From positions 192,393 through 256,392 of the forward strand of contig CAZCRI010000001.1 in assembly GCA_964501135.1 (NCBI GenBank): DNA of 64,000 nucleotides. Reading direction: 5' to 3'. This document shows, in pieces, positions 1,799 to 59,090 of the stretch (its first letter is position 1; each line of letters opens with the position of its first letter). A program made the translations under genes and the position numbers. Under the pieces are notes generated by a model. The model was not told the origin of the DNA, did not search any database, and saw nothing but the letters and a program-made list of their open reading frames with translations. The stretch comes from an uncultured Candidatus Saccharibacteria bacterium (GTDB taxonomy: Bacteria; Patescibacteriota; CPR2; UBA1875; CAIMLA01).

Positions 1799-1802
1799 GT
1801 TA

Positions 1803-1827
1803 AGCCCCCACTCGGGGGCTTTTTATT
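1803..1827 (+). terminator. Rho-independent terminator after typA
   Basis: Hairpin AGCCCCC-actc-GGGGGCT followed by TTTTATT. Confidence 0.7.
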
Positions 1828-1836
1828 ACAAAACAG

Positions 1837-1865
1837 TTGAATAAATGGCTCAACGGCACTATAAT
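1837..1865 (+). promoter_or_regulatory. Sigma70-like promoter, TTGAAT-17nt-TATAAT, driving GC-rich cassette 1
   Basis: TTGAAT at 1837-1842, 17-nt spacer, TATAAT at 1860-1865. The RBS AAGGAG lies 6 nt before the ATG at 1920. Confidence 0.55.
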
Positions 1866-1919
1866 GACCGAGCCAAAAGGAAATCTGCAGCCTATGCTGC
1901 CTGACCCGAAGGAGTACCG

Positions 1920-2204
1920 ATGGGAGTCCCGGTAGTAATGCCGGACGGTGAATCTCAGCAGTGGATGATGTCGACAGCTTGCTTCGACCCCGCTACTGGT
2001 CACCTTCACCTCCGCAGGCTCGACACGGTCTATGTGGAAATAGACTACGAGAAGCAGGTTTCGTTTGCTTGGGTTGACGATGTACTCACCCTCGTCTCGC
2101 CTGCTGAAGGTGCGCGCTCACGCTCGTTAGTGGTTGCTGACCAGGTTCTGGTAGATGGCGATGGCCGCTGGGGTATTTACCCACAAAATCGGCGAAGGAG
2201 GTAG
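1920..2204 (+). CDS. Hypothetical small protein (94 aa) in GC-rich cassette 1
   Basis: ORF with AGGAG RBS. GC content (~58%) is clearly above the neighbours. No recognisable domain. Arg-rich C-terminus. Confidence 0.35.
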   Translation: MGVPVVMPDGESQQWMMSTACFDPATGHLHLRRLDTVYVEIDYEKQVSFAWVDDVLTLVSPAEGARSRSLVVADQVLVDGDGRWGIYPQNRRRR

Positions 2205-2206
2205 CG

Positions 2207-2479
2207 GTGGCTATCTTGACGGGACGTTTTCTCACTATCGTCGCGTTGCACGACGTCCGACGTTGTCAGGTGAAGGAAGCTGTGACGAAGAGCCACAAAG
2301 GCTTGGCGGTGACAGAAGACGGCACCGAAGCGGTTCTGGACCATGAAATGAGGGTCGAGGCCATCGAGACTCCTGACGGGTTGTATCTCTTTGAGCCTCT
2401 TGAGGGTCACGAAGTCGCAGTACTGCCCGGACCCCATGTCCGGGTCCTCCAGTGCGGCTACTGGTATCCCGAGCGCTAG
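2207..2479 (+). CDS. Hypothetical small protein (90 aa), GTG start, in GC-rich cassette 1
   Basis: GGAGG RBS 5 nt before the GTG. Immediately follows the previous ORF. No recognisable domain. Confidence 0.35.
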   Translation: MAILTGRFLTIVALHDVRRCQVKEAVTKSHKGLAVTEDGTEAVLDHEMRVEAIETPDGLYLFEPLEGHEVAVLPGPHVRVLQCGYWYPER

Positions 2480-2509
2480 TCCCTACAAGCTCCACAGTGG
2501 AAGGCAATT

Positions 2510-2537
2510 GCCCCCGCGTGGGGCTTTTGTCGTTTTA
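2510..2537 (+). terminator. Rho-independent terminator closing cassette 1
   Basis: GCCCC-cgcgt-GGGGC followed by TTTTGTCGTTTT. Confidence 0.6.
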
Positions 2538-2585
2538 TTGGCTGTCCCATGGGTGTAAAATATAGCTATAAATAGGAGAAAGACC

Positions 2586-3119
2586 ATGGCAACAAATACT
2601 CATCCAATTATGCGAGACTTGATGTCTCATGTTTTGCAGGTTCTCTATATGCTATTTCTCGGAATTGTCATCGCGGCTCTTTTTGGGCTTGGAGTGGATA
2701 ATTTCTATCCTGCTCCAAAGGCTCCGGAATATCCCACTCTGCTGCAAGAGCAACAATACAAAACAGTGCCAACAACTACTCAGACCGATGCAGAGCTGGC
2801 AGCCCAGAAAAAGTTTGACGCTGATCAGAAACAATACACAGAGAAGTTGAAACCATATACCAGAAACGTTTCTATTGTAATCATGATTCTTGCCGTCCTG
2901 GCCCTCGTGGTATCACTCACTGTATTGTCGCATTGGGAGATTCTAGCCAACGGGTTTCTTCTTGGTGGCGTTTTCTCGATGGCATATAGTATTATTCAGG
3001 GCATGATATCTGAAGACACTAAGTTTCGTTTCTTGGTAATCTGTGTCGCGGCATTGGTTACTCTGGTACTTGGGTACATTAAGTTTATTCGCCCAAATGA
3101 GAAAAGTGTTAAATCTTAA
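2586..3119 (+). CDS. Hypothetical integral membrane protein (about 4 TM helices)
   Basis: Hydrophobic segments LGIVIAALFGLGV, IVIMILAVLALVVSLTVL, GFLLGGVFSMAYSII and FLVICVAALVTLVLGYI. RBS AGGAGAAAGACC precedes the ATG. Confidence 0.5.
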   Translation: MATNTHPIMRDLMSHVLQVLYMLFLGIVIAALFGLGVDNFYPAPKAPEYPTLLQEQQYKTVPTTTQTDAELAAQKKFDADQKQYTEKLKPYTRNVSIVIMILAVLALVVSLTVLSHWEILANGFLLGGVFSMAYSIIQGMISEDTKFRFLVICVAALVTLVLGYIKFIRPNEKSVKS

Positions 3120-5466: not shown

Positions 5467-5487
5467 AATCATTTATATAAAAAGCAG

Positions 5488-5531
5488 AAAGGGAGACGCG
5501 CTCCTCACCTTTCTGGTGATGCAAGTCTCCC
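5488..5531 (-). terminator. Compound GC-rich hairpin, downstream of the minus-strand cassette-2 ORF and also at the 3' end of the AlkD-like gene
   Basis: GGGAGAC...GTCTCCC outer stem with TCACC-tttct-GGTGA inner stem. On the minus strand it is followed by a T-rich run. Confidence 0.5.
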
Positions 5532-5945
5532 TTACCAGGATCTGGGCCTGTAGCTGTCACGAGACATCCCTCGTGTAGCTTGGTTTGCGGCAGCGAAAGA
5601 GGTGTTGATACGCCTGGTGTGATTGTGCGTTTCTAGTTCTCTTTCGGCGCGCCACGAGGCGCGTGCTTTGGCAAACCTGTCCTGTTCGACGTAGGACTCT
5701 AGCTCGTTCCGAACCTTGTCGTTCATCATCTGGCGCAGGTTCAGAGTGACCGTGTAGCGGGTACCATTGCGACTGAGCGGCGGATTGAGCCACTTACTCT
5801 TGTCGCTCAAAGAGCGCAAGATAGGATCTGGCAGACCCGCGTTATTCTTCTGTACCAGCCCTTTTGAGCTGTGGAACAGAAGGCAGAGCGCCAGAGCCAA
5901 GCGAAGCTCATGGTTTTCGACGTGTCTTATTATCTCTGGTACCAT
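5532..5945 (-). CDS. Hypothetical protein (137 aa) in GC-rich cassette 2
   Basis: Minus-strand ORF with AGGAG RBS (gagaggagctcgagATG) and its own promoter. GC content is raised. No recognisable domain. Confidence 0.4.
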   Translation of the reverse strand: MVPEIIRHVENHELRLALALCLLFHSSKGLVQKNNAGLPDPILRSLSDKSKWLNPPLSRNGTRYTVTLNLRQMMNDKVRNELESYVEQDRFAKARASWRAERELETHNHTRRINTSFAAANQATRGMSRDSYRPRSW

Positions 5946-5987
5946 CTCGAGCTCCTCTCGAAGTAGTGTGGATTAGGATGTGCGTGG

Positions 5988-17363: not shown

Positions 17364-17391
17364 TTGACAAAAATAGAGAAAGGTGTATAAT
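17364..17391 (+). promoter_or_regulatory. Consensus sigma70 promoter, TTGACA-16nt-TATAAT, reading into GC-rich cassette 3
   Basis: TTGACA at 17364-17369, TATAAT at 17386-17391. Confidence 0.55.
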
Positions 17392-17478
17392 AATCGGATA
17401 GTTCACAAAGAACATCGCACCGCGGCCAAGAGTCGCATACAATCCACGTACAATGCCTAGGAGGCTGCTGTGAAACGT

Positions 17479-17616
17479 ACTATCTTGGATGATTACTTCC
17501 AGGAACGCCTGAAGGTGTTTCTTGGAGCGCTCTACTTCATCGGTCTCTTCCTCTATTTCATCGGGGAAGCGCTTGTAGAGGACGCGATGCGTCCTTTCCA
17601 GCTGTAGTCCAGCGGG
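17479..17616 (+). CDS. Possible small hydrophobic peptide (45 aa, GTG start) in GC-rich cassette 3
   Basis: Perfect AGGAGG 6 nt before the GTG. VKRTILDDYFQERLKVFLGALYFIGLFLYFIGEALVEDAMRPFQL carries one hydrophobic helix. Speculative. Confidence 0.25.
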
Positions 17617-18088
17617 GACAAAAGGCTCTTAGGGCCCCGTAGACACCGTAGCCGGACGGATTCCGGATGTTCCCTTCATGACGAAGGGTCGAGCAAGGAG
17701 GTATCTCCATGAAGATCGCTCGCACTGCAGTCGCCGTTCGCGGCACCCCGGTCGTCAGCTCGTCCATCCTTATGAGTTCTGAATTCGGCATCCGCGGCGC
17801 GCGCGCCGGCACCGGGCCGCACAACTAGGGCCCGGTCGTCTCGCTTCGGGTAGCAACTCCTCAGGCGGGGAGATCCGAAGCGTCAGCACTAGCCTCGCGT
17901 TTCTGACCAGGAATCCTCTCGCGAGGTTGCTCTAACAGCTTGTGCTAAAATGTACGTGGAAATGGGGTCGGGACGATCACACATGGCCGCGCCAAAGGCG
18001 CCGCGTAGTGTTGGCCGTACCGGCCCTTCTCCTTTTAAGGATACGATGTATACTTGTTTCTTTGCCTTCGGCAATCTAGAATATCTAT

Positions 18089-19138
18089 ATGGATACAAAT
18101 ACTTTAATTATTTCGGGAATTTTAATAGCTGGTTTTGCTGCTCTTTTTTACTATCTCAAAACTCAGGTTGTCGAGCGACCTCAACCGAAGGAAGATGATA
18201 AGTCGTTATTACTCTTGCAACAGCAACTAGCCCAGGTATCTGAGCAGCTGAGCAAGGGAATGGTAGAGTCCAATCGTTCTGTACAGGAACAGTTCCGGGC
18301 CAGTAGTAACATTATCAAGGACGTTACTGAAAAGCTCAGTAACCTGGAGAACACCAACAAACAAGTTTTGGGGATAGCTGACCAGCTACAGGGTCTTGAA
18401 AATGTGCTCAAGAATCCAAAACAGCGTGGCATCCTCGGTGAATACTACCTGGAAACATTGCTCAAGAACATGTTTGGACCCAAGGATTATCAGATGCAGT
18501 ATCCGTTTAAAAACGGGGACATTGTAGATGCGGTAGTGTTTATCAAGGATAAGATCTTGCCGATAGATTCTAAGTTCTCACTAGAGAATTACAACAAGAT
18601 TGTTGCCGAAAAAGACATGACCAAGAAGGAACAGCTAGAGAAGCTCTTTAAGCAGGATCTAAAGAATCGTATCGATGAAACCGCCAAGTACATTAAACCC
18701 AAGGAAGGCACTATGGATTTTGCTTTTATGTTTATTCCTTCCGAGGGGATTTACTATGACCTTTTAGTAAATCAGGTCGGGGCGCTTAAGGTAAACACCA
18801 GGGATCTTATAGATTATGCTTTTCGTGAGAAGAGGGTAATAATTGTGTCGCCGACCTCCTTTGCCGCCTATCTTCAGACCGTGATGCAAGGTTTGCGGGC
18901 CTTGCAGGTTCAGGATTCGATAAAGGAGATTGTGGTCAATGTAAATAAGTTGTCTAGCCACCTTAATGCGTATCAAACCCATATGACCAAGTTGGGGAAC
19001 TCGCTAGGGACCACCGTAAACGCTTACAACACAGCAAGCAAGGAATTTGTGAAGATAGACAAGGATGTTACCAAGATTTCTGGTAAATCCATAGATTCGG
19101 AACTTTTACAGCTCGACAAACCTAGCACTGACGAGTAG
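18089..19138 (+). CDS. rmuC: DNA recombination protein RmuC
   Basis: N-terminal TM, a coiled-coil region, then the conserved RmuC C-terminal region (LGEYYLETLL...PIDSKFSLENY...VIIVSPTSFAAYLQTV). Confidence 0.8.
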   Translation: MDTNTLIISGILIAGFAALFYYLKTQVVERPQPKEDDKSLLLLQQQLAQVSEQLSKGMVESNRSVQEQFRASSNIIKDVTEKLSNLENTNKQVLGIADQLQGLENVLKNPKQRGILGEYYLETLLKNMFGPKDYQMQYPFKNGDIVDAVVFIKDKILPIDSKFSLENYNKIVAEKDMTKKEQLEKLFKQDLKNRIDETAKYIKPKEGTMDFAFMFIPSEGIYYDLLVNQVGALKVNTRDLIDYAFREKRVIIVSPTSFAAYLQTVMQGLRALQVQDSIKEIVVNVNKLSSHLNAYQTHMTKLGNSLGTTVNAYNTASKEFVKIDKDVTKISGKSIDSELLQLDKPSTDE

Positions 19139-34398: not shown

Positions 34399-37300
34399 GT
34401 GATGAAACCTAAAAAAGCTCAGCTAAATTCAGTGTGGAAACGAGCTACAAAGCTACTATCGAAAAGTAGTAATTTTAGGTTACGCAAAAGTTTTTTTACT
34501 CAAATTCCGTTGCGTTCACTATCCTTCGTCTGGTCACTCTTCAAACATATTATTTCTTTCCTAGCGAAGAACGTTATCTTGGTCCTTATAAATTTTATTG
34601 ATTATCTAGTAAAACTGCTCCAGATATTACGCTATGAGCTGACCTATAAATTCCACCTCAAGGTTCGCTCGGTACATGACACTTTGGTAATACGTGTGCC
34701 GGTTTACAAGAAGGTTACAGAACATCAGCTAGCTGTCCCAGTACGCAATGCAACTGTATCGGCTTTCTTCTGCTCATTAGCAATCTTTTTATCTCTCCAG
34801 TATGTACTGCCTCTTTTTAATCCGTTTGCCCCACAGGGAGCTCACGCGGGATCAAATAGTGCGACCTGGACCACAGATTCTGACTTTAATAACAATACAA
34901 TTACAACAAACACACCTACAACCAAGAATACAACAAATTTTGCAGGTACAGTTCTTGCCACAACCGGTAGTACTTCAGTTGTGGGCACGGGTACATCTTT
35001 TGCAGATTATCTGGATCCTTTTAATACTCCTAAGGCTATTAATATAGACGATGTTTCTTATGGTGTGGCTAGTGTGACCGACAATACCCATCTGACACTT
35101 ACTGCAAACTATCAAGGGACTACTGGCTCGGGGAAAACATTCACCTTTGATAATGTTGTAGTGAATGATGATGCCATAAGTCTACGTAAATATGGTCTCC
35201 CTGTAACTAAAACTTCAACTTTTACAGTTCCTAGCGGTGTCACGAAAATATATATTGACATGAAGGGTGGCGGAGGCGGTGGTGGTTCTACTGTTTATTC
35301 TGGAGGGAATTGCGGACAAGCCGGAGGCGCCGGGGGATACTCAGCGCTTAAGATTGATAACGGACTAGAATACTGGGCATTCGGCGGCGGCGGAGGTGGA
35401 GGAGGTTGCCCTAACTTTGTTGGGGCAACAGGCTCTCCTGGAACCTATAATCACCGAAACGTTCCCACCTTAATACCCGTTGATGGAGGGGCAAATAATG
35501 GAGGTATAGGGGGTTACTATGCAAGTACTAGCCGTGGAGGTAATGGTGGTGCGGGGGGCAGGATCACGGGCACATTGGCAGTCACTGGGGGTCAAGTTGT
35601 CACAATAACAAATGGTGCTGCAGGGGTTGGTGCTACTGGCCCAAGCGGATGGCCAAAGGTAAACGGAGCGAATGGATCCGCAGGCTCTGTAGAGGTACTG
35701 TATTACATCCCTGCATTTGCAGGAAATGGTAATATAACTGGCTTTAAAATTGATGCAGGGGCAGGACTTAAATATAAGTGGAGTTCCTTATCATGGGTTA
35801 CTGATGCCTTACCAAGTAATACATCGGTGAGGTTTAAATACAGAACATCAGACGACGGTTCCAGCTGGTCTGATTCTACCTGGTCACAAACAGGAACGGC
35901 ACAAATAACTGGTAGTTCAGGAGGAGCTTCTTTGACCAGTTTGAGTGCTTCCAGATACTTGGAACTTCAGCTGCTGCTGTATTCCGTAGACGGAGTCTAT
36001 TCCCCTAAGCTAAATGAGTTTATAGTACAGTACGATACCTTGGAAGCACCCTTAAATGAAAACCTATCGTTAACTGACATAAGTAATAACTCATTAAGAA
36101 CCACAACGGGTATGATTACAGACGTTCCGATCGAGACCACTTCTATACCGGCGGGGCATTCCAGATATGGAACTCCAAACACTTGGACAAATCAAGCTAC
36201 AGTAAGGCTTAAGGCAAACAACCTTACCTGCGGGAGTGGTGTGACGGCATGTACTGTTACTTCTACAAACCTAAGACCAGAAGTGGAGATAAAGCCTATT
36301 GTTAATGGGGTTCCAACGGCATTTACGGGCAGTGGAGTGACGGCAGATGAAGGCAAGACCTATGTCGATATTTCTGGTTTAGCTACAAACTCAGCCTACC
36401 ATATCCAAGTAAGAGCCGTGGATGGTCAGGCCAGAGCATCTGCCTGGGTGTCGTATGGAAATAACGGAGAGTCGGAACCAGATGTTACGGTAGAACAAAC
36501 GTCTCCCACCCTTCAGCTTAATGGTTTTGCGGATCAAGCTGGCAGTGATATTTTGGAAAAAGGAGGTGTGCTATACACCAGGAGTAATCAGGTAAAGATG
36601 AAGATTGGAACCTCTGACAATGGGGGTATACGTTCGAACCTTGCAAAAGTAATGATAACTAACAACCTCGACGACACAGGGTGGCAGGATGTTACGAATC
36701 AAATTACAAACTATCAGACACAGTATCTTGGACAATCATCGTTTACTGGGCTAGTACCCTGGACTCTTGAGGGCACGGACGGAGTAAAGACCGTTACTGT
36801 CAAAACTGTAGACAATGCTGGCAACGTCAGTGGACAGAGCATTGTGACTTCAACGGAGCTATCTACTACCGATAGTACTTTTGTGGTTTCTCCTGCAGGT
36901 AATGCGGGCGGCGCTGTAGTTGTAGATAATAAACTTCAGTTATCATCGACAACTAGTGGCGGAGTGGGTAGTTCGACTACCTCTGTATACCCAACAAATG
37001 ATGAAACTACATACTGGGATGAATGGTGCGGAGGCTGGTCATTGGATGAAAACCCAATGGGCACCAATTCTGGCTACGATAATGACTGTGGGAGTTGGGG
37101 GCAAGATGCGCACATTACCTTCAATAACGGTTTAGTTTCTGGTCTAACAAATGCAAGTATAAGGATTACCAGTAATGGTGATGCACTTACCTGGGTCTGG
37201 CATGATACGACAGGTACTTCTAATAGTGTTAATCTGACTACTAATACACCAAATTCACTAGATATCACGGCAATGGTCCAGGCAGATATTGCGAATGGTG

Positions 37301-40300
37301 ATACCTACACTGACGTGTGGGTAAACAACGGAATGGGTGTATATTCAATGGAGGATCCGATTCCTAGTTATAGGCCCCAATTAACACTAACAGCAAGTAC
37401 TCCAAGTACAACTACCTTTGACACACCAGAAACATTTACCTCTCGTATTCTCTATAGCGGTGCCACAAGTCCAGACTATAGTGCATTTACCACTAGTCAG
37501 ACAAATAACGGACAAACCATTTCATATCAGATGCGCTCGGGTAATAATGCCACTACTATCGATGGTTCGTGGGGCAGTTGGTACTCGGTAACGCCTGGTA
37601 GCTCTATAAATGCAAATCTTAGTGGCACGAACAGGGGTTATTTCCAGTACAAGGCAACTCTATCCACATCTAATCCGGCAGTTACACCAACTATCAGCAG
37701 TGTAACTGTGGCTGGTGCATATACGCCTCCTTCTGAAGGTACGGTGTATTCGGCGAATATCACTCTTGATCTTATTGGTCCGGCAACTTTTGATGTTTCT
37801 CTGCCAGCCGACAATACTTGGAGTGGCTCCAATAAGCCGACCCTAACCTGGACGGCCTCCCAGGATAATCCAGGGTCGGGACTGTATAAATATGAACTCT
37901 ACATGGATGGGGTACTTAAGAAAACCATTGATGACACTACCGTGGGGGCAACGGCAAACATCCTTAGCGCTACTCCTGGGAGTGACGTGTCATATACCTT
38001 ACAAACTGGCGAGGAATTATCGGAAAAGATGCATACTTGGTATGTGAAAGCATATGACAAGGCACTAAATACCGCCGATTCTACCAGGGGAGTCAGCAAC
38101 CCTTTCCATATTGGTTATGATAGCTCGCTTCCGAATACCGTGCCAACTACAGATATCTCGGCTCAGGCGTCTGGGTGGTTTACCACGAGCCCGCAAATCA
38201 CTCTTACGGCTACAGATCCAGGCGCAGGTGATGGTTCTGGTATCTCCGAGATTAAATATCGTTGGGATAATAGCGATCTGTCAACCGGTGCCACTACTTA
38301 TGCTTCGGCGATAAACATGTCGGCCACTATTGGAGACGGCACGCACGTTTTATATTTCCGCTCCAAGGATACTGCAGGAAACTATGAATCAGTAAAACAG
38401 CAGACCTACAAACTCGATACTATTAACCCAAACACAGATTATTCTATAAGTAACACTCCGCCGAACGGTGACAATGACTGGTACGTAGGAACTGCGCCTA
38501 CTATTTCGCTTACCCCGCATGATGAAGGAAGTGCGAACGCTTCGGGTGTGGCCACTACAAAATATCAGTGGGTCAACCATGGTGCTCAGCCAGGGGCAAC
38601 ATGGCTTACTGGCACTAGCTTTGCCGCATCGCTTGGGGATAAGACACTTTACTACTACTCTACAGACGTAGCTGGGAATGATGGTGCACAGTATGAGCAA
38701 CAACACGTAAAATTTGACAATGTGAGCCCTATTTCTCCGACTGGCTTTGATGCTCCCACAGATAGAGCGTATACGGATTCGATCTACCTCAAATGGAACG
38801 GCGTTACTGACACTTCAGGTGTCCAGACCTATCAGTTGAGAAGAAAAAAAGATAGCGATACCTGGAGCGGTTTGTCCGTTGTTGATTTGGGAGCTGTCGG
38901 GAATATAACCACCTATACAGATGCTAATGGTCTAGAAGCTGGCTATAAATATACTTATCAAATAAAAACCCAGGATAATGCAGGCAATTGGAGCGACGGC
39001 TGGTCGAGTGGTAACCCAGACCAGGTAGTTGGCTATACTATCGATACCGTAACGCCGACAGTCCCTAGTGGCGTCGTCGCGGCAGCTTGTGATGGATCCG
39101 GGGCTACGCTTGCGATCCCAGATACTGACCCGGCAGTGACCACGCCAATATGTACTAGTATTAGCAATAAGGGCTATGAAATCACGTTATCTTGGAAGCA
39201 AGCGGGTGATACGGGTGTGGGCCTTGGCGGATACAAGATCTACCGTTCGGCTGACGGCGATACTGCCGATGAGACCAAGTGGGTGATGGTAGGTGTGCTT
39301 CCTTGGACTGGCGCCGAGGTACTCAAGTGGAATGATAACAATACAAACAACTTAGCAACCTGGGACATTGGAACGTACCCAAGTACGCATCAGAAATCCG
39401 GACAACAGGCAGGGAAGACGGATCCTTCAGATCCATTGAGCGACTCTACCACTTACTACTATCGAGTCACCGCCTACGACGCTGTTAATAACGAGAGCGC
39501 ACTGTTCCCACCAATTTTCCCAGATCCAGACATGAACAGGACGGCTGCTGTGACCCCAGACGTTACCGCGCCTGGCTGGTTTGATGTACAGGGAAACCGA
39601 ATCAGTGACGCTGGCGTTTCTGCTGTGGCACTCGGCCTTGATGGTAGTAACCTCGATGACGAAAACATTGGTCATCAGCGAATAGTAGTAAGCTGGAACA
39701 CTGCTATCGACAAAAAACACAACGGGGATGTTCTCGAAGGTTCGGTACCTAGCTACGAACTATACCGCTCAGCGACTAGCTACCAAACTGACGGTGAGTG
39801 GCTTGCGAGTGCTACCAAACTTACACTGAGCCCAACTACGGCCGTGACCTACGAGGACAACGGGCTCGCTGACTCGACAGTTTACTATTATCGAGTGCTT
39901 ACCTATGACGTGAGCGCCAACAAATCAGACCTCTCCAGTCGGGAGGGGAGTGACCACGCCACTACCTATGATTCTAATATCCCATCAGCTCCGAGTGAGG
40001 TCCGTGTGTCGACGGCAAAGGGAGATCCTAACGTCGCAGACTCCCAAGTGGGAAACACGATAAACATTAGCTTTAAGGGAAGTAACTCCAAATATCGTGA
40101 AATTGTGAAGTACGAGGTTTATCGTTATGAAGCGGATACTAATAATCTTAGTAACAGCCAGTGGCTTGATAGTACGCAGACCACGAAACTCAAGATTTCC
40201 CACTCAGATAGTTGTGGTAGCAAGTGCGAGACCTATACGGCTGGGTCCTCAGGCGGCGACATCGAGATTACGGCGAATCAGGATGACCGCGATAATGAGT

Positions 40301-42621
40301 ACCGGATCCTAGATACGGGGCTTTCCGACGCTCATACCTACTTTTATCGAGTGAGAGCTCAGGACAACGCCTATGTTCCAAACGAACCAGAGCAAAGCTA
40401 TCGTTTCGGGCCACTTTCAAACATTTCTCCGCTGGATTCGAACGAAGCGGCTAGATTCGGTTGGGACACGACTCCTGACGCCACTGCTCCAGACATCAGT
40501 GCGAGCGACCTTGCTCTTTCCGTAAAAGACACACACCCTAGTGACACTTGGCTCCGTAACGTTGTCACTTGGAGAGTGGCAGACAAGACAAAAATCATTC
40601 GCCGGAAACAACTTGGCTCAGGATGCACGACCGTACTCACCGTTGGTAGCACGGAGTATTGCACAGATTTTGCTAGATATGAAATTCATCGTGAGGTTTA
40701 CGATCAAACCGATGTTCTTATCCCTGAGATGAATGAGACCTTTACATTTACCGATATTAATACCAATATTTTGGTGGATTCCGTTGCGGTGGCATATAAA
40801 TCTGACAAATTTAAGTATTATATGGTAATAGTCGATAATGCAGACACAGAATATAGGTACGCAAACGGTACGGTGATTAATAAGAGTGGGTCTACAACGA
40901 ATGTTCCAAATATGACCAGTAAAATATATTGGAATGGTTCTATTACTCCTGAGAAGTCCCATGCCGTGATTGACAGTGTTGCTCTAAGTGGTGTTGGGGT
41001 ATCAAGCGCCACGGTTACCTGGCATACTGATCAAAGTACGGACTCGTTGGTTGAATATAGGCCAATGAAAAAAGTTTCGGGCAATTGGGTCGTAGATGAT
41101 AGCTCGAGTAACCAGTTTGTAGCAGTAGGCCATAGGGAGACTGATGTAAACCATTCGGTATATATTTTTGGGATGAAACCGGAAACTAGATACGAATATC
41201 GGGTAATCTCGAAGAACTATCCATTTGCCAACGAAACGGTGGTTTCTACTGGTTTACCAGAGCTAGTGACGAAGGGATTTATCATTACCTATATTCCTTC
41301 GCCAGAGAATGTTTCTACTGTATCGGCTGACATTCGTTGGACGACTAATATGCCTTCGAATTCGAATATGGTAGAGTATCGCGAAAGTAATGGTAGCCAG
41401 AATGGCGCCATGGCAGAGACTCCTCTCAAGTCCGAAGAGATTACGAATGAGATGAAGGATTGTGTAGCAAATCCGGCCTCGCCGCTCTGTACGCACTCTG
41501 TAACGTTGTCACCTTTGAAGAAAAATACTGAATATACAATAAATATTGTCTCGATTTCGCTTGATAATTATACTTCAACTTCTGGTTTACAGCGTTTTAC
41601 TACCGCCAATTCTGATTCAAAACAATTTACAATTGCTCCATCTGCTTCTAATGTTGCTGAACGAAACATCACCTCTACATCAGCCCAGATTGTCTTCCAG
41701 ACTTCAGAGGCAACGACAGCGACTCTGTATTATGACACAGACAGTGGTGCACCAAACTATGATCCAAAAGACTACAAACAGACCGCTACAGATGCAATGA
41801 AGGGAACTACTCATGCAATTCTGCTAGATGGTCTAGAGCCGGGGAAGAAATACTTCTACGTTGTTAAAGTAGATAATGGTCTCTTGTCTTACACCTCTCC
41901 AGAGGCCTCATTTACCGCCGTCCTTAAACCGAAGATTTCGAACCTAAAGATTTCTGATGTGAAGCCATACTCCTTTAGTATCACCTGGGATACCAATATT
42001 GATACCGAGACCCTGATAAACCTAGGTACAAGTGCTAACTACACCGAAAAGCGCGGCAAATCTGGCCTTACCAAGGTTCACGAACTCTTAGTTGACGGCC
42101 TACAGGATAATACTGAGTACCACTACCAAATTCTAGCCAAGGATGAGACGGGTGAAGAGGTAGCTAGTGGTGATTCAGCAGTCCGTACGCCACTTGATAC
42201 CGAAGGCCCTAAGATTACTGGAGTGAAGGTGGATATCTTGCCAATGGGAGAGAGTGACGCCACTTCTTCAATCATTGTTTCATGGCAGACTAACAAACCG
42301 GCCTCAACACTGGTAGAATATGACCAGGGTATCATTGGCGGTACCTATAATAGTCGCTCGGTAGAAGATAGCACTTTGAATAATTCCCACACTGTAATTA
42401 TCAAAGGTCTCGCACCAGCCTCCTCTTATCGCTATCGTCTGATATCGAAGGATAAACGGCAGAATACCACTATTTCACAGGACTACACCTTCGTAACGCC
42501 GACAAAAGAAAAATCCATCCTACAGCTCATCTTAAAGTCACTCGAGGAAACCTTCGCTTGGACGAAGAACCTCAATCAATTCTTTGGTAATGTTGGTAAA
42601 AGATTAACAGGTGGGAAGTAA
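34399..42621 (+). CDS. Giant cell-surface protein 2 (2740 aa), a paralog of giant protein 1 with a divergent central region
   Basis: Shared N-terminal block (ELTYKFHLKVRSVHDTLVI...PVRNATVSAF...LQYVLPLFNPF) and shared C-terminal Fn3 array ending ...TPTKEKSILQLILKSLEETFAWTKNLNQFFGNVGKRLTGGK. Gly-rich region and Ig-like repeats. Confidence 0.8.
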   Translation: MMKPKKAQLNSVWKRATKLLSKSSNFRLRKSFFTQIPLRSLSFVWSLFKHIISFLAKNVILVLINFIDYLVKLLQILRYELTYKFHLKVRSVHDTLVIRVPVYKKVTEHQLAVPVRNATVSAFFCSLAIFLSLQYVLPLFNPFAPQGAHAGSNSATWTTDSDFNNNTITTNTPTTKNTTNFAGTVLATTGSTSVVGTGTSFADYLDPFNTPKAINIDDVSYGVASVTDNTHLTLTANYQGTTGSGKTFTFDNVVVNDDAISLRKYGLPVTKTSTFTVPSGVTKIYIDMKGGGGGGGSTVYSGGNCGQAGGAGGYSALKIDNGLEYWAFGGGGGGGGCPNFVGATGSPGTYNHRNVPTLIPVDGGANNGGIGGYYASTSRGGNGGAGGRITGTLAVTGGQVVTITNGAAGVGATGPSGWPKVNGANGSAGSVEVLYYIPAFAGNGNITGFKIDAGAGLKYKWSSLSWVTDALPSNTSVRFKYRTSDDGSSWSDSTWSQTGTAQITGSSGGASLTSLSASRYLELQLLLYSVDGVYSPKLNEFIVQYDTLEAPLNENLSLTDISNNSLRTTTGMITDVPIETTSIPAGHSRYGTPNTWTNQATVRLKANNLTCGSGVTACTVTSTNLRPEVEIKPIVNGVPTAFTGSGVTADEGKTYVDISGLATNSAYHIQVRAVDGQARASAWVSYGNNGESEPDVTVEQTSPTLQLNGFADQAGSDILEKGGVLYTRSNQVKMKIGTSDNGGIRSNLAKVMITNNLDDTGWQDVTNQITNYQTQYLGQSSFTGLVPWTLEGTDGVKTVTVKTVDNAGNVSGQSIVTSTELSTTDSTFVVSPAGNAGGAVVVDNKLQLSSTTSGGVGSSTTSVYPTNDETTYWDEWCGGWSLDENPMGTNSGYDNDCGSWGQDAHITFNNGLVSGLTNASIRITSNGDALTWVWHDTTGTSNSVNLTTNTPNSLDITAMVQADIANGDTYTDVWVNNGMGVYSMEDPIPSYRPQLTLTASTPSTTTFDTPETFTSRILYSGATSPDYSAFTTSQTNNGQTISYQMRSGNNATTIDGSWGSWYSVTPGSSINANLSGTNRGYFQYKATLSTSNPAVTPTISSVTVAGAYTPPSEGTVYSANITLDLIGPATFDVSLPADNTWSGSNKPTLTWTASQDNPGSGLYKYELYMDGVLKKTIDDTTVGATANILSATPGSDVSYTLQTGEELSEKMHTWYVKAYDKALNTADSTRGVSNPFHIGYDSSLPNTVPTTDISAQASGWFTTSPQITLTATDPGAGDGSGISEIKYRWDNSDLSTGATTYASAINMSATIGDGTHVLYFRSKDTAGNYESVKQQTYKLDTINPNTDYSISNTPPNGDNDWYVGTAPTISLTPHDEGSANASGVATTKYQWVNHGAQPGATWLTGTSFAASLGDKTLYYYSTDVAGNDGAQYEQQHVKFDNVSPISPTGFDAPTDRAYTDSIYLKWNGVTDTSGVQTYQLRRKKDSDTWSGLSVVDLGAVGNITTYTDANGLEAGYKYTYQIKTQDNAGNWSDGWSSGNPDQVVGYTIDTVTPTVPSGVVAAACDGSGATLAIPDTDPAVTTPICTSISNKGYEITLSWKQAGDTGVGLGGYKIYRSADGDTADETKWVMVGVLPWTGAEVLKWNDNNTNNLATWDIGTYPSTHQKSGQQAGKTDPSDPLSDSTTYYYRVTAYDAVNNESALFPPIFPDPDMNRTAAVTPDVTAPGWFDVQGNRISDAGVSAVALGLDGSNLDDENIGHQRIVVSWNTAIDKKHNGDVLEGSVPSYELYRSATSYQTDGEWLASATKLTLSPTTAVTYEDNGLADSTVYYYRVLTYDVSANKSDLSSREGSDHATTYDSNIPSAPSEVRVSTAKGDPNVADSQVGNTINISFKGSNSKYREIVKYEVYRYEADTNNLSNSQWLDSTQTTKLKISHSDSCGSKCETYTAGSSGGDIEITANQDDRDNEYRILDTGLSDAHTYFYRVRAQDNAYVPNEPEQSYRFGPLSNISPLDSNEAARFGWDTTPDATAPDISASDLALSVKDTHPSDTWLRNVVTWRVADKTKIIRRKQLGSGCTTVLTVGSTEYCTDFARYEIHREVYDQTDVLIPEMNETFTFTDINTNILVDSVAVAYKSDKFKYYMVIVDNADTEYRYANGTVINKSGSTTNVPNMTSKIYWNGSITPEKSHAVIDSVALSGVGVSSATVTWHTDQSTDSLVEYRPMKKVSGNWVVDDSSSNQFVAVGHRETDVNHSVYIFGMKPETRYEYRVISKNYPFANETVVSTGLPELVTKGFIITYIPSPENVSTVSADIRWTTNMPSNSNMVEYRESNGSQNGAMAETPLKSEEITNEMKDCVANPASPLCTHSVTLSPLKKNTEYTINIVSISLDNYTSTSGLQRFTTANSDSKQFTIAPSASNVAERNITSTSAQIVFQTSEATTATLYYDTDSGAPNYDPKDYKQTATDAMKGTTHAILLDGLEPGKKYFYVVKVDNGLLSYTSPEASFTAVLKPKISNLKISDVKPYSFSITWDTNIDTETLINLGTSANYTEKRGKSGLTKVHELLVDGLQDNTEYHYQILAKDETGEEVASGDSAVRTPLDTEGPKITGVKVDILPMGESDATSSIIVSWQTNKPASTLVEYDQGIIGGTYNSRSVEDSTLNNSHTVIIKGLAPASSYRYRLISKDKRQNTTISQDYTFVTPTKEKSILQLILKSLEETFAWTKNLNQFFGNVGKRLTGGK

Positions 42622-55412: not shown

Positions 55413-56258
55413 ATGACATGGCAATTATTGGTATTAATAAGTGTTATTGCGGGATCCTCATCGGTGATCTTGCAAAAACGATTAGCAGATAAGCGGCTGG
55501 ATCCAATAGCCTATGCAATTGCCGTACAATTTCTCTCAGCTGTAATATTAGCCGTAGTCCTGGGCTTTACCGGTTTTGATTTTGGTGGAATGCTACGTTT
55601 CTGGCCAAATCTGATATTAATGGTGCTTTTGTGGTCTGGCTTCAATGCCTTAAACCTTTTTGCTCTAAAAAAGGTTGAAGCTTCTCACTTTATAATCCTT
55701 TTTCAGACTAGGGTTTTCTGGACATTGCTTGTCTCGTTGCTCATTATGAACGCAAAGTTCACCGCTCTCAACCTAGCAGGATTAGTTTTGATCACGGTCG
55801 CAGTTATTATTGCAACACCGAAGGCAAATTTTGGCACCCTAAATCGTAACGATTTCTATGTATTTTTAGCTGCGATGTTCTTTGGCCTTGGGATTGCCAA
55901 TGACGTCGTTGTCCTAAAGGGTGTAGCTAGTCCGATTACCTATTCATTTTTGACTTTGATTTTACCCGCAATTTTCTTGGCAGTTGCTTTCCCAAAGGCG
56001 CTTAAGAAGTTTGGATTTTTGACAGACAAAAAAGTAGCGGTAGAGTTTTACGTTACGACAGCCTTGGCTGCCCTGACTCTAATGGCAACTTACACCTCTT
56101 TCAAGATTGGTAACCCGGCGATTATTACATCAATTTCACAGATAGGTTCCGTGGTAGTGGTTCTGCTTAGTATAGTCTTTTTAAGAGAAAGAGATCGGAT
56201 CCCGCTAAAGATATTCGCGGCCCTGGTTTCTTTTTTTGGTTTATTACTACTAGTTTAA
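55413..56258 (+). CDS. EamA/DMT-family transporter (10 TM)
   Basis: Two EamA-like halves with GSSSVILQKRL and hydrophobic repeats. 281 aa. Confidence 0.7.
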   Translation: MTWQLLVLISVIAGSSSVILQKRLADKRLDPIAYAIAVQFLSAVILAVVLGFTGFDFGGMLRFWPNLILMVLLWSGFNALNLFALKKVEASHFIILFQTRVFWTLLVSLLIMNAKFTALNLAGLVLITVAVIIATPKANFGTLNRNDFYVFLAAMFFGLGIANDVVVLKGVASPITYSFLTLILPAIFLAVAFPKALKKFGFLTDKKVAVEFYVTTALAALTLMATYTSFKIGNPAIITSISQIGSVVVVLLSIVFLRERDRIPLKIFAALVSFFGLLLLV

Positions 56259-56267
56259 TTAAAAGGC

Positions 56268-56316
56268 TGTCCAGTGCCGCGCATATCATGCGCGGCACTG
56301 GGTCTTGGACAGCAGC
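56268..56316 (-). terminator. Long GC-rich hairpin between the EamA gene and cassette 4
   Basis: CTGTCCAGTGCCGCGCAT-atc-ATGCGCGGCACTGG..GGACAG. Confidence 0.5.
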
Positions 56317-56717
56317 TACTTGATGGCAGCCTCGTAGAGATTGCCGATACCTACGGCTTCCATGATGGAACGGAGAGCGAGCATCTGCGTCGCGGAGGTC
56401 ATCTCCTCTTTGCGCCAAGATGCCGGGAACTCCGAGTAGAGCCGGGAAGCATTGATCCCGTCTGCGATAGAGCCTACGGCACAGGCGGCGATAGCACAGG
56501 TGTCGTAACGCCCGAGGAGTGCAATCACCGGACGAGTGTTCGCGCTGGCGATTGCATCCCCGATTACGAGGCCAAGCATGAAGCCGTCTTCGTCTTTGCT
56601 GTAGCTCTTCTCGTGGATGTGCAGTTTCTTGTAGGTGTCCAGCTTCTGCTTGTAGTACTCGCTGATGCTTGCGTAAAGCTCATGGATCTCGGCTTGCAGC
56701 CTTACAAGTCTCTGGTT
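56316..56717 (-). CDS. Hypothetical protein (134 aa) in GC-rich cassette 4
   Basis: Start taken at MNQRLV with a GAGAGGGG RBS. Contains LGLVIGDAIA...GRYDTCAIAACAVGSIADGI, only faintly reminiscent of ADP-ribosylglycohydrolase motifs. Too short to assign. Confidence 0.35.
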   Translation of the reverse strand, partial: NQRLVRLQAEIHELYASISEYYKQKLDTYKKLHIHEKSYSKDEDGFMLGLVIGDAIASANTRPVIALLGRYDTCAIAACAVGSIADGINASRLYSEFPASWRKEEMTSATQMLALRSIMEAVGIGNLYEAAIK

Positions 56718-56977
56718 CATTGCAACCCCTCTCGTGAAAGCCGGTCGGCTTGTCTCCACTGTCCAAAGCCCTTTCGATTTACGACGTAAATCAAAAAGGC
56801 TTTCCAGCGGAAAGCCTTTGTAATAGTTGTGAAAATTCAGCAAATACTAACTAGACTCTCCGAGAAGAAAGCGGCGGCGTGGGCGACGAGTTGTTGACGT
56901 AGTATTTTGCATTTGATTTAGTCTATCAAAGTTTGGCGGAGAGGTCAATATTAAGTTAGAAACACTGGATAATACTG

Positions 56978-57005
56978 TTGACATGCCTCACTCCTTTGCT
57001 ATAAT
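56978..57005 (+). promoter_or_regulatory. Consensus sigma70 promoter, TTGACA-16nt-TATAAT, about 420 nt upstream of the surface protein gene
   Basis: TTGACA at 56978-56983, TATAAT at 57000-57005. Confidence 0.55.
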
Positions 57006-57364
57006 TTCACTACGCCTTTTGCGAAAGTAAGGGGTACGGAATCCGAAATCCTGTTTATGCCAAATCAGCATAGAGGTTACAAAACAAACAAACTATTCTG
57101 ATACGAACAAAGTAAGGGAGTGAATGCTTTGACCTATGGGTGCGCACACAGTACTGCTACACGGTTGACACAAGTGCCTATGGGAAACAGCAAATGGTGA
57201 AGCCGGTCACATTTCCTCGAAGTTTTTTATGGTAATAAATATCAAACTTGGAGGGAGGGTGATCGGTTTTTGTTTTGTCAAAATTATGGCAACACCGATC
57301 AGAACTCTCATAACACAAACACAGAATGACAGAAGCGTAATTAATCAGTAATAATAAACGTAAG

Positions 57365-57416
57365 CCCCGACGTTTCGTTGTTCGAAAGTCGGGATCCCGA
57401 CCGCAAGCGTCGGGGG
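57365..57416 (+). repeat. Tandem hairpins (copy 2 of the CCCGAC...GTCGGG motif) overlapping the RBS of the surface protein gene
   Basis: CCCCGACGTTTCG-ttgtt-CGAAAGTCGGG, then AT, then CCCGAC-cgcaag-CGTCGGGGG. The RBS GGGGGAGG shares the 3' arm. Confidence 0.5.
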
Positions 57417-57425
57417 AGGTAAAAA

Positions 57426-59090
57426 ATGTTTCAAAAGTTAAAGAAAAATTTTGCAAAGGTAGCGCTTGTGGCGCTCACTATGCAAGTGGTAGCAATGTTA
57501 GCTCCAGCTGGCGCTATGGCGGCTTTTAACCCAAGCGTTGCTGTCGACAAAACAGAACTCTACAAAGACGAGCAATTGACCATTACTGCGAACCTGGAGA
57601 ATACCGGGGATTTTGCTACATTTTTTGTATCGAACGATGGTACAAATTATAGTTTTGTAAAGTCGTATCAGGATGGTGGTTCCGATGACCAGGATGGTTT
57701 AGCAAATGGCACCTTCGTAGGTGAAGTTGATTACTCACAGTTTCCTGCGACAGCTACACCAGTAGAATATACAACCCATGTGTATGGCTCTAGCGCTGCA
57801 CTAACGGCCGTAAGTGACCTCACTGGCTTAATCTTTGGTAGTACAAAGGTTACTGTCGAGGTTGGGTATCGAGCTCCAATTGCTACAATCACTCCGAATG
57901 TGATTGACCAGGTAACAACCAGCGACCTTACAGTAAAATTAACAACTCCAGGAAATTACCTTTCTTTTTGGGGGAGCAATGATGGGACAAACTACAACTT
58001 CATTGGTTCTTATCAGGAAGGCGGGGTTGATGATTTAGACACCCTAACCGATGGGGTCTTCACTGAGCAATACAGTTTTGCTTACTTTACGGCAGCGGGT
58101 GATTATCGTTTCCACATTTACGAATCTGCGGCTCCAATGACAGCGGTTTCCGATCTGCAGTATCTTGCATTTGCAAGTACTGAACAGGTTGTAATTATGG
58201 ACGTTGCTGCTCCAGAAGTAACCACTACTTTTGCTCCTGTAATTGTCAACAATCTCGGCAAAAGCATCAATGTATTCTTCTCTGCAAATGAAAATATGAC
58301 CGTAGATTCTTTTACCTACGAAGTTGATGGCGCACCTTTTGTGCCAGCGGACCCAACCTTGGTAAAAGCGGATACCACTGATTTTGCACTTTTCCACTCT
58401 GTACAGATTCCTGCAAATTTCTTTGCCGGTGCTACTACAAGCCTGACCCTAAATTACGTTGCCAAAGACAAAGTTGGTAACCCATATGTTGGAAAGGTGG
58501 TAATCCCAGTAGACTTAGTCGCCCCAGGAAAAGTAGAAAATCTAGTAGCTACCACAAACGCCGATGGATCGGTTGTCCTTTCTTGGACAAACCCAGCGGG
58601 TGATTATACCGGTCTTCAGGTAAAACGCGATGGCGTCTTCCTTACTACTTTGCCAGTAGGAACAATTACTTATACCGATACCTCTGTCACTCGTGGAACA
58701 ACCTATAGCTATACCGTTACAGCTTTCGATGCTGCTGGCAACGAGACAGTGACGGCTCCTGTTCAGATCACAGTGCCTGGGCTTCAGGTTGCAGCTGCTG
58801 TTTCTGACTCAACAAACTACACTACCGATTCTACAGGCAAAGATGCTGGCACCGTTACCTCTGCTGCAAACTCGGTAGATACAAAGGGTGACAAGGACGA
58901 AGATAAGGAAAATGGCTTGCCTTTCTGGGCGATCGTCCTTCTAGTCGTACTTGCAGCCGTCGGCGGATATCTGATCTATAATCAGAAGCCAGTAGCTACT
59001 CCAGTAGTAGCAGCTCCAAAGAAAGAAAAGGCAGTAGCTCCTAAGAAGACTACACCAAAGAAAAAACCTACTACAAAAACCAAAAAATAA
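57426..59090 (+). CDS. Cell-surface protein with signal peptide, two tandem ~90-aa repeats, an Fn3-like domain, and a C-terminal TM plus Lys-rich tail
   Basis: Signal VALVALTMQVVAMLAPAGAMAA. Repeats ...SNDGTNYSFVKSYQDGGSDD... and ...SNDGTNYNFIGSYQEGGVDD.... Fn3 ...VVLSWTNPAGDYTGLQVKRDG...TAFDAAGNE. C-terminal WAIVLLVVLAAVGGYLIY followed by a KKxK tail. Confidence 0.7.
   Translation: MFQKLKKNFAKVALVALTMQVVAMLAPAGAMAAFNPSVAVDKTELYKDEQLTITANLENTGDFATFFVSNDGTNYSFVKSYQDGGSDDQDGLANGTFVGEVDYSQFPATATPVEYTTHVYGSSAALTAVSDLTGLIFGSTKVTVEVGYRAPIATITPNVIDQVTTSDLTVKLTTPGNYLSFWGSNDGTNYNFIGSYQEGGVDDLDTLTDGVFTEQYSFAYFTAAGDYRFHIYESAAPMTAVSDLQYLAFASTEQVVIMDVAAPEVTTTFAPVIVNNLGKSINVFFSANENMTVDSFTYEVDGAPFVPADPTLVKADTTDFALFHSVQIPANFFAGATTSLTLNYVAKDKVGNPYVGKVVIPVDLVAPGKVENLVATTNADGSVVLSWTNPAGDYTGLQVKRDGVFLTTLPVGTITYTDTSVTRGTTYSYTVTAFDAAGNETVTAPVQITVPGLQVAAAVSDSTNYTTDSTGKDAGTVTSAANSVDTKGDKDEDKENGLPFWAIVLLVVLAAVGGYLIYNQKPVATPVVAAPKKEKAVAPKKTTPKKKPTTKTKK

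Follow-up and report, generated by a model that had tools for sequence, protein, structure and literature searches.

What is the short GC-rich block that interrupts a run of housekeeping genes in a 64,000-nucleotide stretch of DNA (the window) from an uncultured Candidatus Saccharibacteria bacterium (contig CAZCRI010000001.1, positions 192,393 to 256,392)? The block lies between an EamA transporter gene and a promoter that had been ascribed to a surface-protein gene, and the first-pass annotation took it for a gene cassette bounded by two long hairpins. The best explanation appears to be that it is an autonomous minus-strand transcription unit, and not a hairpin-bounded insert. The unit would comprise, in order, a promoter, a probably leaderless, arginine-rich upstream open reading frame (uORF) of 21 codons, an RNA segment that can fold as either an antiterminator or a terminator, a Shine-Dalgarno (SD) sequence, a gene for a 134-aa orphan protein (hereafter the cargo) and a 3′ hairpin (Table 1). 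We favour, with a probability of roughly 0.55, the reading that a ribosome-mediated and probably arginine-sensing attenuator drives a fast-evolving or swapped orphan gene, a mechanism proposed solely on sequence and folding. Across both junctions of the block, the window is matched at 100% identity by an independent Logan assembly (L001); the block is thus not an assembly chimera.

Four loci that carry the leader were compared: the window, L002 (the contig that encodes P0002, a relative of the cargo protein), L003 (a JGI contig) and L009, which with L015 belongs to contig JBGSPL010000004.1 of a Patescibacteria metagenome-assembled genome (MAG; isolate JTS-AC303). L003 and L009/L015 were each retrieved by a 20-mer from the upstream region, and in public data the leader-bearing element amounts to these four DNA loci and five cargo proteins. 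L009/L015 and the window are syntenic: in L009/L015, gyrB is followed by two ORFs, gyrA, the unit, a conserved noncoding element and genes for a surface protein and a methyltransferase. Between the two, gyrA is 97.7% identical in protein and 83.5% in DNA, and 54% of its four-fold sites differ (substitutions per four-fold site, K4 = 0.97), so that unconstrained DNA is expected to be only ~46% identical. Over the ~190 nt of the leader, measured between the start codons of uORF and cargo, identity is nevertheless 82.5% for window and L009 and 75–83% among the four loci, which indicates strong constraint on the leader. Window and L009 share 62% identity in a neighbouring 145-aa gene, and their cargo ORFs are unalignable at the DNA level. 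Conservation ends at the cargo start codon and returns at the cargo stop codon, and L002 resembles the window far more 5′ of the cargo gene than inside it. If this reading holds, a control region under very strong purifying selection, as conserved as gyrA DNA, is joined to coding sequence that divergence or replacement has made unrecognizable. This unusual pairing, together with the lasting foreign codon usage of the variable cargo (see below), hints at diversifying selection or cassette exchange.

No related locus was found with the EamA protein as bait on genome contigs or with the cargo protein alignment as bait on metagenome contigs, viral contigs contained neither leader nor cargo, and the short-pattern matches L004–L008, L010–L014 and L016–L018 proved to be due to chance. 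Searching the window with leader and 3′-hairpin profiles revealed no further copy of either, and the literature on Patescibacteria or Saccharibacteria yielded no description of an equivalent element.

The promoter named by the first-pass annotation (TTGACC-17-TAGACT) was recovered by a consensus scan (56948–56920) and is kept in L002, L003 and L009, with TTGACC or TTGTCA as the −35 element and an extended −10 element (TGnTAnnnT) in 4/4 loci. The end of the −10 element is separated from the uORF ATG by exactly 7 nt at every locus, although these seven bases vary, and no SD is present there. This fixed gap of differing sequence suggests a leaderless transcript, and the uORF is probably leaderless, with transcription starting at its AUG. 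The encoded peptides are MQNTTSTTRRPRRRFLLGESS (window), MQNTTTTTRRPRRRFSSGKSS (L009), MNNAANTTRFPRRRFPSRKSS (L002) and MNIISNTTRFPRRRLSSRKPS (L003). Within their core, T-T-R-x-P-R-R-R, seven of the eight codons (7–9 and 11–14) change only synonymously at third positions (ACT/ACC, CGT/CGC), with Arg at codons 9 and 12–14 in all four loci, whereas codon 10, the variable x, is CGC/CGT (Arg, two loci) or TTC (Phe), and codons 2–6 and 15–20 are free to vary. By eye, the C-rich core segment (leader nt 19–42) has no complementary partner in the leader. The synonymous-only changes, the fixed length and frame and the lack of a pairing partner for this segment argue that the uORF is translated. Rare Arg codons were considered as a cause of stalling and rejected, as 19% of host Arg codons are CGC and 29% are CGT; any stalling would therefore arise from the supply of Arg-tRNA or from the nascent peptide. 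None of the four uORF peptides matches Pfam, and no family of Rfam 15 matches the leader (56721–56912) at E ≤ 10. The 21-codon uORF is unannotated, and a hairpin that looks like a boundary is liable to be misread by annotation pipelines.

The leader, which has a native-looking GC content of ~0.47, folds more stably than its shuffles (z = −4.3 and −4.1). Its segment s1 (AAGGCUUUCC) serves as the 5′ arm of an intrinsic terminator and is also complementary to s0, a segment within the 3′ part of the uORF. The s0:s1 pairing (helix 1) occurs at the same uORF position in 4/4 loci with −9.8 to −13.6 kcal/mol, a stability matched by 0.1–2% of shuffles; it is 94% paired, with changes from G.U to A-U and from U.G to C-G, and encloses a hairpin, P0, whose stem is invariant and whose loop varies (AUUU/AACU/AACC). 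The competing terminator hairpin has an 11-bp stem and a U-rich tail (UUGAUUU), reaches −12.6 to −14.3 kcal/mol, is invariant in sequence save for one loop base, and is the sole terminator-like site in 56100–57500. Downstream, the terminator 3′ arm (s2) and tail could pair with a further segment, s3, in read-through RNA; 97% of the cells of this s2:s3 hairpin are paired, two changes in L009 retain pairing (U.G/U-A swaps), and one compensatory pair is found at the loop end. Paired cells amount to 95.9% versus 39–55% for slid controls, in four near-identical sequences with one double change only. By eye, no promoter-like hexamer pair is seen between the terminator and the cargo start, so that the cargo gene apparently depends on read-through.

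The antiterminator unit (−14.6 to −17.7 kcal/mol) and the terminator (−12.6 to −14.3 kcal/mol) are close in energy, and the first structure to nucleate should therefore win. We propose that transcription begins at or beside the uORF AUG and that the uORF is translated. On arriving at the stop codon, the ribosome would mask uORF codons 18–21 (s0) and the foot of P0; with s0 masked, AAAGGCUUUCC would pair with GGAAAGCCUUU, and RNA polymerase would terminate at the U-tract ahead of the gene. When a ribosome footprint is modelled at the stop codon, the terminator alone can form in 4/4 loci. Were the ribosome delayed in T-T-R-x-P-R-R-R, whether by scarce Arg-tRNA or by nascent-peptide-dependent pausing, s0 would be free to pair first with the terminator 5′ arm, the terminator would be blocked and the gene transcribed. 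The antiterminator would form unless s0 is occupied, because it is transcribed before the terminator 3′ arm and is slightly more stable. In its stalled position, the ribosome would in addition shield codons 15–17, a pyrimidine tract that could otherwise pair with the cargo SD. Slow decoding of the Arg tract would thus switch the gene on, and the cargo would evolve, or be exchanged, very fast under a fixed control region. If this is correct, the unit would be a ribosome-mediated attenuator that relies on arginine codons and a leaderless uORF, found in Patescibacteria, a group whose gene regulation is almost unexplored and most of whose members cannot be grown alone.

Several observations weigh against this reading. 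With a ribosome placed on the Arg codons, the equilibrium folds of the window and L009 favour the terminator together with another small hairpin; because these folds are not uniform among the loci, the direction of regulation rests on a kinetic argument. The covariation is not significant, 259 of 500 shuffles reaching the value observed for only four, very similar leader sequences, and the terminator helix is without any variation in the four loci. RNAalifold pairs uORF codons 15–17 with the cargo SD, but this anti-SD:SD duplex beats shuffles in L002 only (p 0.02; 0.13–0.45 in the other three). The cargo is without a detectable family or link to arginine metabolism, which is atypical for amino-acid attenuators, and, to our knowledge, leaderless translation has not been demonstrated in Patescibacteria.

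The first-pass annotation had placed the gene on the minus strand with the SD GAGAGGGG and had judged a plus-strand ORF of 171 aa to be probably noise, and both calls are borne out. GC at codon positions 1/2/3 of the minus frame is 0.55/0.40/0.73. An exhaustive phmmer (HMMER) search of 1.84 billion representatives with the 134-aa protein (P0001) found exactly two relatives, P0002 (137 aa, 38% identity, E 7e-16) and P0003 (130 aa, 37% identity, E 9e-14), which share with it the motifs S-x-D-x-DGF-x-LGL-x-x-GD and AC-x-x-GS-x-x-DG-x-x-AS-x-L. Between the cargo genes of window and L002, identity at codon positions 1/2/3 is 0.53/0.61/0.36, third positions being the most diverged, and the antisense frames of the relatives' cargo genes are interrupted by 3–7 stops each. 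The homologues, the GC content at third codon positions (GC3), the codon-position divergence and the broken antisense frames all indicate that the minus-strand ORF is a real gene and the plus-strand ORF noise. The database start of P0002 is a GTG at L002 position 296, inside the conserved leader hairpin; the ATG at L002:320, which follows GAAGGGAA, aligns with the starts of the other loci and gives 129 aa, is more likely the start.

The orphan status of the protein also stands, with no family match and two distant relatives only among ~15 billion proteins, whereas its supposed resemblance to an ADP-ribosylglycohydrolase (ARH) is unsupported. Pfam, NCBIfam, PHROGs and PADLOC gave nothing significant for the 134-aa protein, the plus-strand ORF or the ORF of GC-rich block 2 (Table 1), and Pfam and NCBIfam gave no ADP-ribosylglycohydrolase match for the 134-aa protein at E ≤ 1. 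The other cargo proteins had no match in Pfam, sequence and profile searches of the PDB with the cargo had none, and word-indexed (k-mer) protein searches returned the query proteins and no relative. The AlphaFold2 (AF2) model of the protein is all-helical and of low confidence (predicted local distance difference test score, pLDDT, 51.6), as is that of a second cargo type described below (pLDDT 49.6), and Foldseek searches of the PDB with these low-confidence models found no match at E ≤ 0.001. An ADP-ribosylglycohydrolase thus has no support from profile matches, nor does the model of pLDDT 51.6, too poor for assigning a fold, match the ~300-aa all-helical ARH fold. We propose that the product is a small cytoplasmic all-helical protein without an assigned function; as a guess, it may serve in conflict or immunity in a strain-specific way.

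The five cargo proteins, each a singleton at 90% identity, fall into two types. P0001 (window), P0002 (L002) and P0003 constitute type A, with mutual identities of 35–42%, and P0004 (L003) and P0005 (L009) constitute type B, with 25% identity (E 2e-6). Similarity between the types is marginal (best BLASTP E 0.007, in the motif region; hhalign E 0.03, probability 1.6%), and in the low-confidence AF2 models both are all-helical with elements in similar order; their homology is plausible. The cargo types group window with L002 and L009 with L003, contradicting the leader, which groups window with L009 and L002 with L003 (11 informative sites versus 2 and 1 for the alternatives), and the flanks, which agree with the leader. 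This incongruence could stem from whole ORFs being exchanged by way of the conserved flanks, from a long-standing polymorphism, or from differential loss after an ancestor that had both genes.

Common to the cargo genes is a codon usage that sets them apart from their hosts. In the four cargo genes compared (window 56316–56720, L002:320–709, L003:1186–1668 and L009:5837–6298), C/(C+T) in two-fold NNY codons is 0.76–0.83 and GC3 is 0.60–0.72, versus 0.16–0.49 and 0.37–0.52, respectively, in 41 host ORFs. As this bias persists across ~1 substitution per neutral site between the hosts, it must be maintained or renewed. GC-biased conversion, an outside gene pool and selection on the mRNA are candidate sources of the C-ending bias. 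Translational selection for GC3 was rejected, no host ORF of the window coming near the C-ending bias of the cargo in a comparison without ribosomal-protein genes.

A bolder account, doubtful though the least so of those we set beside the favoured one, would make the locus a fixed, attenuator-controlled slot in which whole ORFs are exchanged, or ancient alternative alleles A and B are kept, across the species of one Patescibacteria clade. The leader and the 3′ hairpin would act as recombination arms or sites, the C-ending bias would stem from frequent recombination (GC-biased conversion) or a separate GC-rich gene pool, and the cargo protein, strain-specific and used in conflict or in host interaction, would be induced by arginine-starved ribosome stalling. 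If so, the signal of arginine lack could report host status in an auxotrophic episymbiont.

The first-pass annotation was right that both hairpins exist (arms 56271–56284/56288–56301 and 56790–56805/56809–56824), but the one at 56796–56824 does not bound the unit: it lies within the transcript, ~100 nt 3′ of the promoter and ~75 nt 5′ of the ORF. The 3′ hairpin has 14-nt perfect arms (56271–56284/56288–56301) within an outer GCTGTCC/GGACAGC stem. Of its 17 aligned pairs, three show compensatory double changes and none is broken, and of the four loci the window alone has a TTTT tail on the cargo strand. The motif TGGACAG occurs twice in the unit, at the end of s3 (UUGGACAGUGG, 56760–56768) and in the 3′ hairpin (CACUGGACAGCC, 56266–56313). 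Its leader copy finds a complement, CUGUCCAA, in the 5′ arm of the 3′ hairpin; this holds for the window, for L009 and for L002 (there with one wobble pair). This repeat could be a 5′–3′ contact, a recombination repeat or chance. The terminator sequence CACTGGAAAGCC also resembles CACTGGACAGCC of the 3′ hairpin.

The view taken by the first-pass annotation, that of a recently acquired foreign cassette (moron-like or horizontally transferred) that is bounded by hairpins and has a simple promoter but no regulated leader, has the composition of the block in its favour. The anomaly withstands a quantitative check, the cargo ORF having a GC content of 0.558 compared with a window mean of 0.457 (sd 0.036, 405-nt windows; z = 2.84), a value equalled by just 1.2% of 405-nt windows. 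GC3 is likewise raised, the cargo codon usage lies beyond the range of all 41 host ORFs, the block has its own promoter and terminator and encodes an orphan, and three more GC-rich blocks with signals of their own lie in the window. However, the unit sits at the same place beside gyrA in a relative at K4 ~1, and the slot is therefore old; its promoter, leader and 3′ hairpin are conserved and native-looking, neither an integrase nor a transposase is among the 20 ORFs scanned, no phage copy was found, and the supposed boundary hairpin is internal to the transcript. We consider recent acquisition unlikely. An integron-like site-specific recombination slot, with an attC-like 3′ hairpin and whole ORFs swapped, would account for a cargo type at odds with the leader and flank grouping (11 sites versus 2 and 1), for conservation that ends exactly at the start and stop codons, and for a hairpin kept by compensatory changes yet without a U-tail in 3/4 loci. 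With no integrase in the scanned ORFs, no GTTRRRY/RYYYAAC core in the hairpin by eye and only one cassette per locus, such a slot is very improbable, and the deep divergence within types (35% and 25% identity) means that differential loss or ancient polymorphism fits equally well.

Two further explanations concern the leader. Promoter, ORF and good terminator make up a complete minimal gene, and the conservation of the peptide core at the amino-acid level would also be expected of an independent small gene, for a 21-aa Arg-rich peptide or a ~110-nt small RNA, with the cargo expressed by unregulated leak-through. That conservation extends ~70 nt past the terminator, up to the cargo SD, that s3 is exactly complementary to the terminator 3′ arm, that an antiterminator overlaps the terminator, and that no separate cargo promoter is seen by eye all speak against such a gene, which we rate as rather unlikely. 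The very high nucleotide conservation, the stable fold (z ~ −4) and the terminator-type expression platform would suit a riboswitch-like RNA that binds a ligand or protein, the uORF being incidental. Yet Rfam has no matching family at E ≤ 10, no evident partner in the leader is seen for the best-conserved 5′ segment (nt 19–42), and the substitutions of this segment outside codon 10 are limited to third codon positions; the N-terminal uORF codons vary freely without indels, and an AUG stands at the predicted transcription start in 4/4 loci. A riboswitch-like leader is thus, in our view, improbable. The first-pass annotation is partly supported: coding strand, promoter and orphan status were right, and the conserved uORF, the terminator/antiterminator leader and the variability of the cargo were overlooked.

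The unit is best described, as far as its sequence can tell, as a variant of the leader-peptide attenuator that is leaderless and Arg-rich, is found in Patescibacteria and would control a hypervariable orphan gene with anomalous codon usage. It shares with the trp, his, thr, pheA and leu attenuators a short ORF in which codons for a single amino acid are clustered, an intrinsic terminator 5′ of the structural gene, and a mutually exclusive antiterminator set by ribosome position, the last being computed here only. In contrast to these systems, the sensor codons are for Arg, the uORF is apparently leaderless, there is no 1:2 pause hairpin, and the regulated gene is an orphan instead of a gene for Arg biosynthesis or transport. 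As the antiterminator 5′ arm sits inside the uORF, the default without translation would here be read-through. We know of no Arg-codon attenuator of the leader-peptide type that has been established in bacteria.

The closest documented parallel appears to be found in mycobacteria, where leaderless short ORFs (sORFs) encoding poly-Cys are ribosome-stalling attenuators of Cys metabolic genes and act on translation by unmasking a ribosome-binding site (bioRxiv 10.1101/834739). Both systems have a first-cistron sORF, probably leaderless in the present unit, with a codon tract for one amino acid, and in both a stalled ribosome is proposed to remodel downstream RNA that blocks the next gene; the present unit differs in its canonical terminator, in an SD-masking helix without statistical support and in its phylum, Patescibacteria. 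Translational attenuation of ermC, cat and cmlA likewise involves a leader ORF and stacked alternative hairpins from a repeated motif (here GGCUUU/AAAGCC) that end near the SD, but senses a drug-stalled ribosome and has no terminator, and no resistance gene is found at the present locus. The fungal arginine attenuator peptide (arg-2/CPA1 uORF) is a eukaryotic uORF product of ~24 codons that senses free Arg via the nascent peptide at the stop codon. As proposed here, it links arginine status to a downstream ORF through ribosome stalling, but there is no sequence similarity, and the four uORF peptides had no match in Pfam, which includes a model for the fungal leader. Phage morons and integron cassettes are single genes of deviant composition with their own signals, and the unit resembles them as a single gene of deviant composition between housekeeping genes whose cargo varies among relatives. 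Unlike them, it is chromosomal and old, with a native control region far more conserved than the cargo, and searches turned up neither a prophage nor an integrase (20 scanned ORFs and the genes flanking the block) nor, in the 3′ hairpin, the GTTRRRY/RYYYAAC core of an attC site.

Table 1. Positions in the window of the parts of the unit and of other features discussed in the text
Feature	Position	Strand	Details
Promoter	56920–56948	−	−35 TTGACC (56943–56948), 17-nt spacer with TG extension, −10 TAGACT (56920–56925); consensus scan
uORF	56847–56912	−	21 codons, MQNTTSTTRRPRRRFLLGESS plus stop; length, start and stop the same in 4/4 loci, no indels
uORF Arg tract	56871–56888	−	codons 9–14
s0, putative antiterminator 5′ arm	56853–56861	−	GGAGAGTCT, uORF codons 18–20; best uORF partner of the terminator 5′ arm
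P0, hairpin capping the antiterminator	56821–56849	−	first three bases are the uORF stop codon; minimum free energy folds
Predicted intrinsic terminator T (s1:s2)	56785–56819	−	AAAGGCTTTCC-GCT-GGAAAGCCTTT (56795–56819), then TTGATTT; scan
s2:s3 hairpin	56765–56803	−	terminator 3′ arm and tail with downstream AAATCGAAAGGGCTTT; read-through RNA only; −18.1 to −21.1 kcal/mol
Small hairpin directly before the SD	56738–56751	−	AAGCC-loop-GGCTT; stem invariant, loop different in each of four loci
SD of the cargo gene	56726–56733	−	GAGAGGGG; 5 nt 5′ of ATG 56720; same position in L009, L003, L002
Cargo gene	56316–56720	−	134-aa orphan protein P0001, type A; GC 0.558, GC3 0.73; homologues
Conserved 3′ hairpin	56266–56313	−	starts 2 nt past the cargo stop, between the convergent EamA and cargo genes
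Perfect promoter	56978–57005	+	TTGACA-16-TATAAT; surface-protein promoter of the first-pass annotation; drives a ~267-nt noncoding stretch
GC-rich block 1	1801–2606		TTGAAT-17-TATAAT promoter; plus-strand ORFs 1920–2204 and 2207–2479 (GGAGG, GTG start); terminators on both sides
GC-rich block 2	5481–5966		minus-strand 137-aa ORF 5532–5945
GC-rich block 3	17391–18146		perfect promoter; 45-aa ORF 17470–17607, then ~480 nt (GC 0.6) with no convincing ORF

The neighbourhood is one of housekeeping functions (BipA, an MFS transporter, PheST, RmuC, GyrB, GyrA and 16S rRNA), and no integrase or transposase was detected among 20 window ORFs scanned. The EamA transporter gene (55413–56258, plus strand, GC 0.41) is missing from the syntenic MAG locus, where gyrA directly precedes the unit, and an exact-match look-up of public proteins held no record of its product. 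On the other side, a noncoding stretch within 56978–57278 (plus strand) is 91% identical to L009:6790–7112 and 78% to L003. It closes with a long hairpin (57199–57270) and a T-run, 148 nt short of the surface-protein ATG; the 5′ arm of the hairpin contains a 13-codon ORF (57194–57235, MVKPVTFPRSFLW). For this stretch, which could be a noncoding RNA or a second leader of the attenuator type, Rfam returned generic hairpin matches only. Between the unit promoter and the conserved noncoding element, L009 has ~280 extra bases (L009:6512–6789) that are missing in the window and L003; they contain a hairpin, CCTGGCTTGCGACCAGG, which is also found 5′ of the L002 promoter (L002:1–110), and an 82-aa hydrophobic ORF on the opposite strand.

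Besides the 16S rRNA gene and a segment of one giant ORF, the stretches of the window with GC ≥ 0.54 are four intergenic-looking blocks (1801–2606, 5481–5966, 17391–18146 and 56181–56816). The claim that the present block is the fourth instance of a cassette pattern holds in composition but not in sequence, as an all-versus-all comparison of the four blocks revealed no similarity in DNA or protein. Blocks 1–3 sit between housekeeping genes. At 90% identity, each ORF of blocks 1 and 2 is a singleton, and C-ending codons are preferred in these ORFs (0.63–0.74) as in the cargo. The only GC ≥ 0.54 stretch within a long ORF (35251–35726, plus strand) is part of the gene for a 2740-aa protein (34399–42621). 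This gene belongs to a plus-strand region (25254–47547) in which giant ORFs of 3016 and 2740 aa are followed by genes for an 820-aa protein with TrwB/HerA-type ATPase domains and a 676-aa protein without a domain match; at L015, the same TrwB/HerA-type ATPase and 676-aa protein adjoin gyrB.

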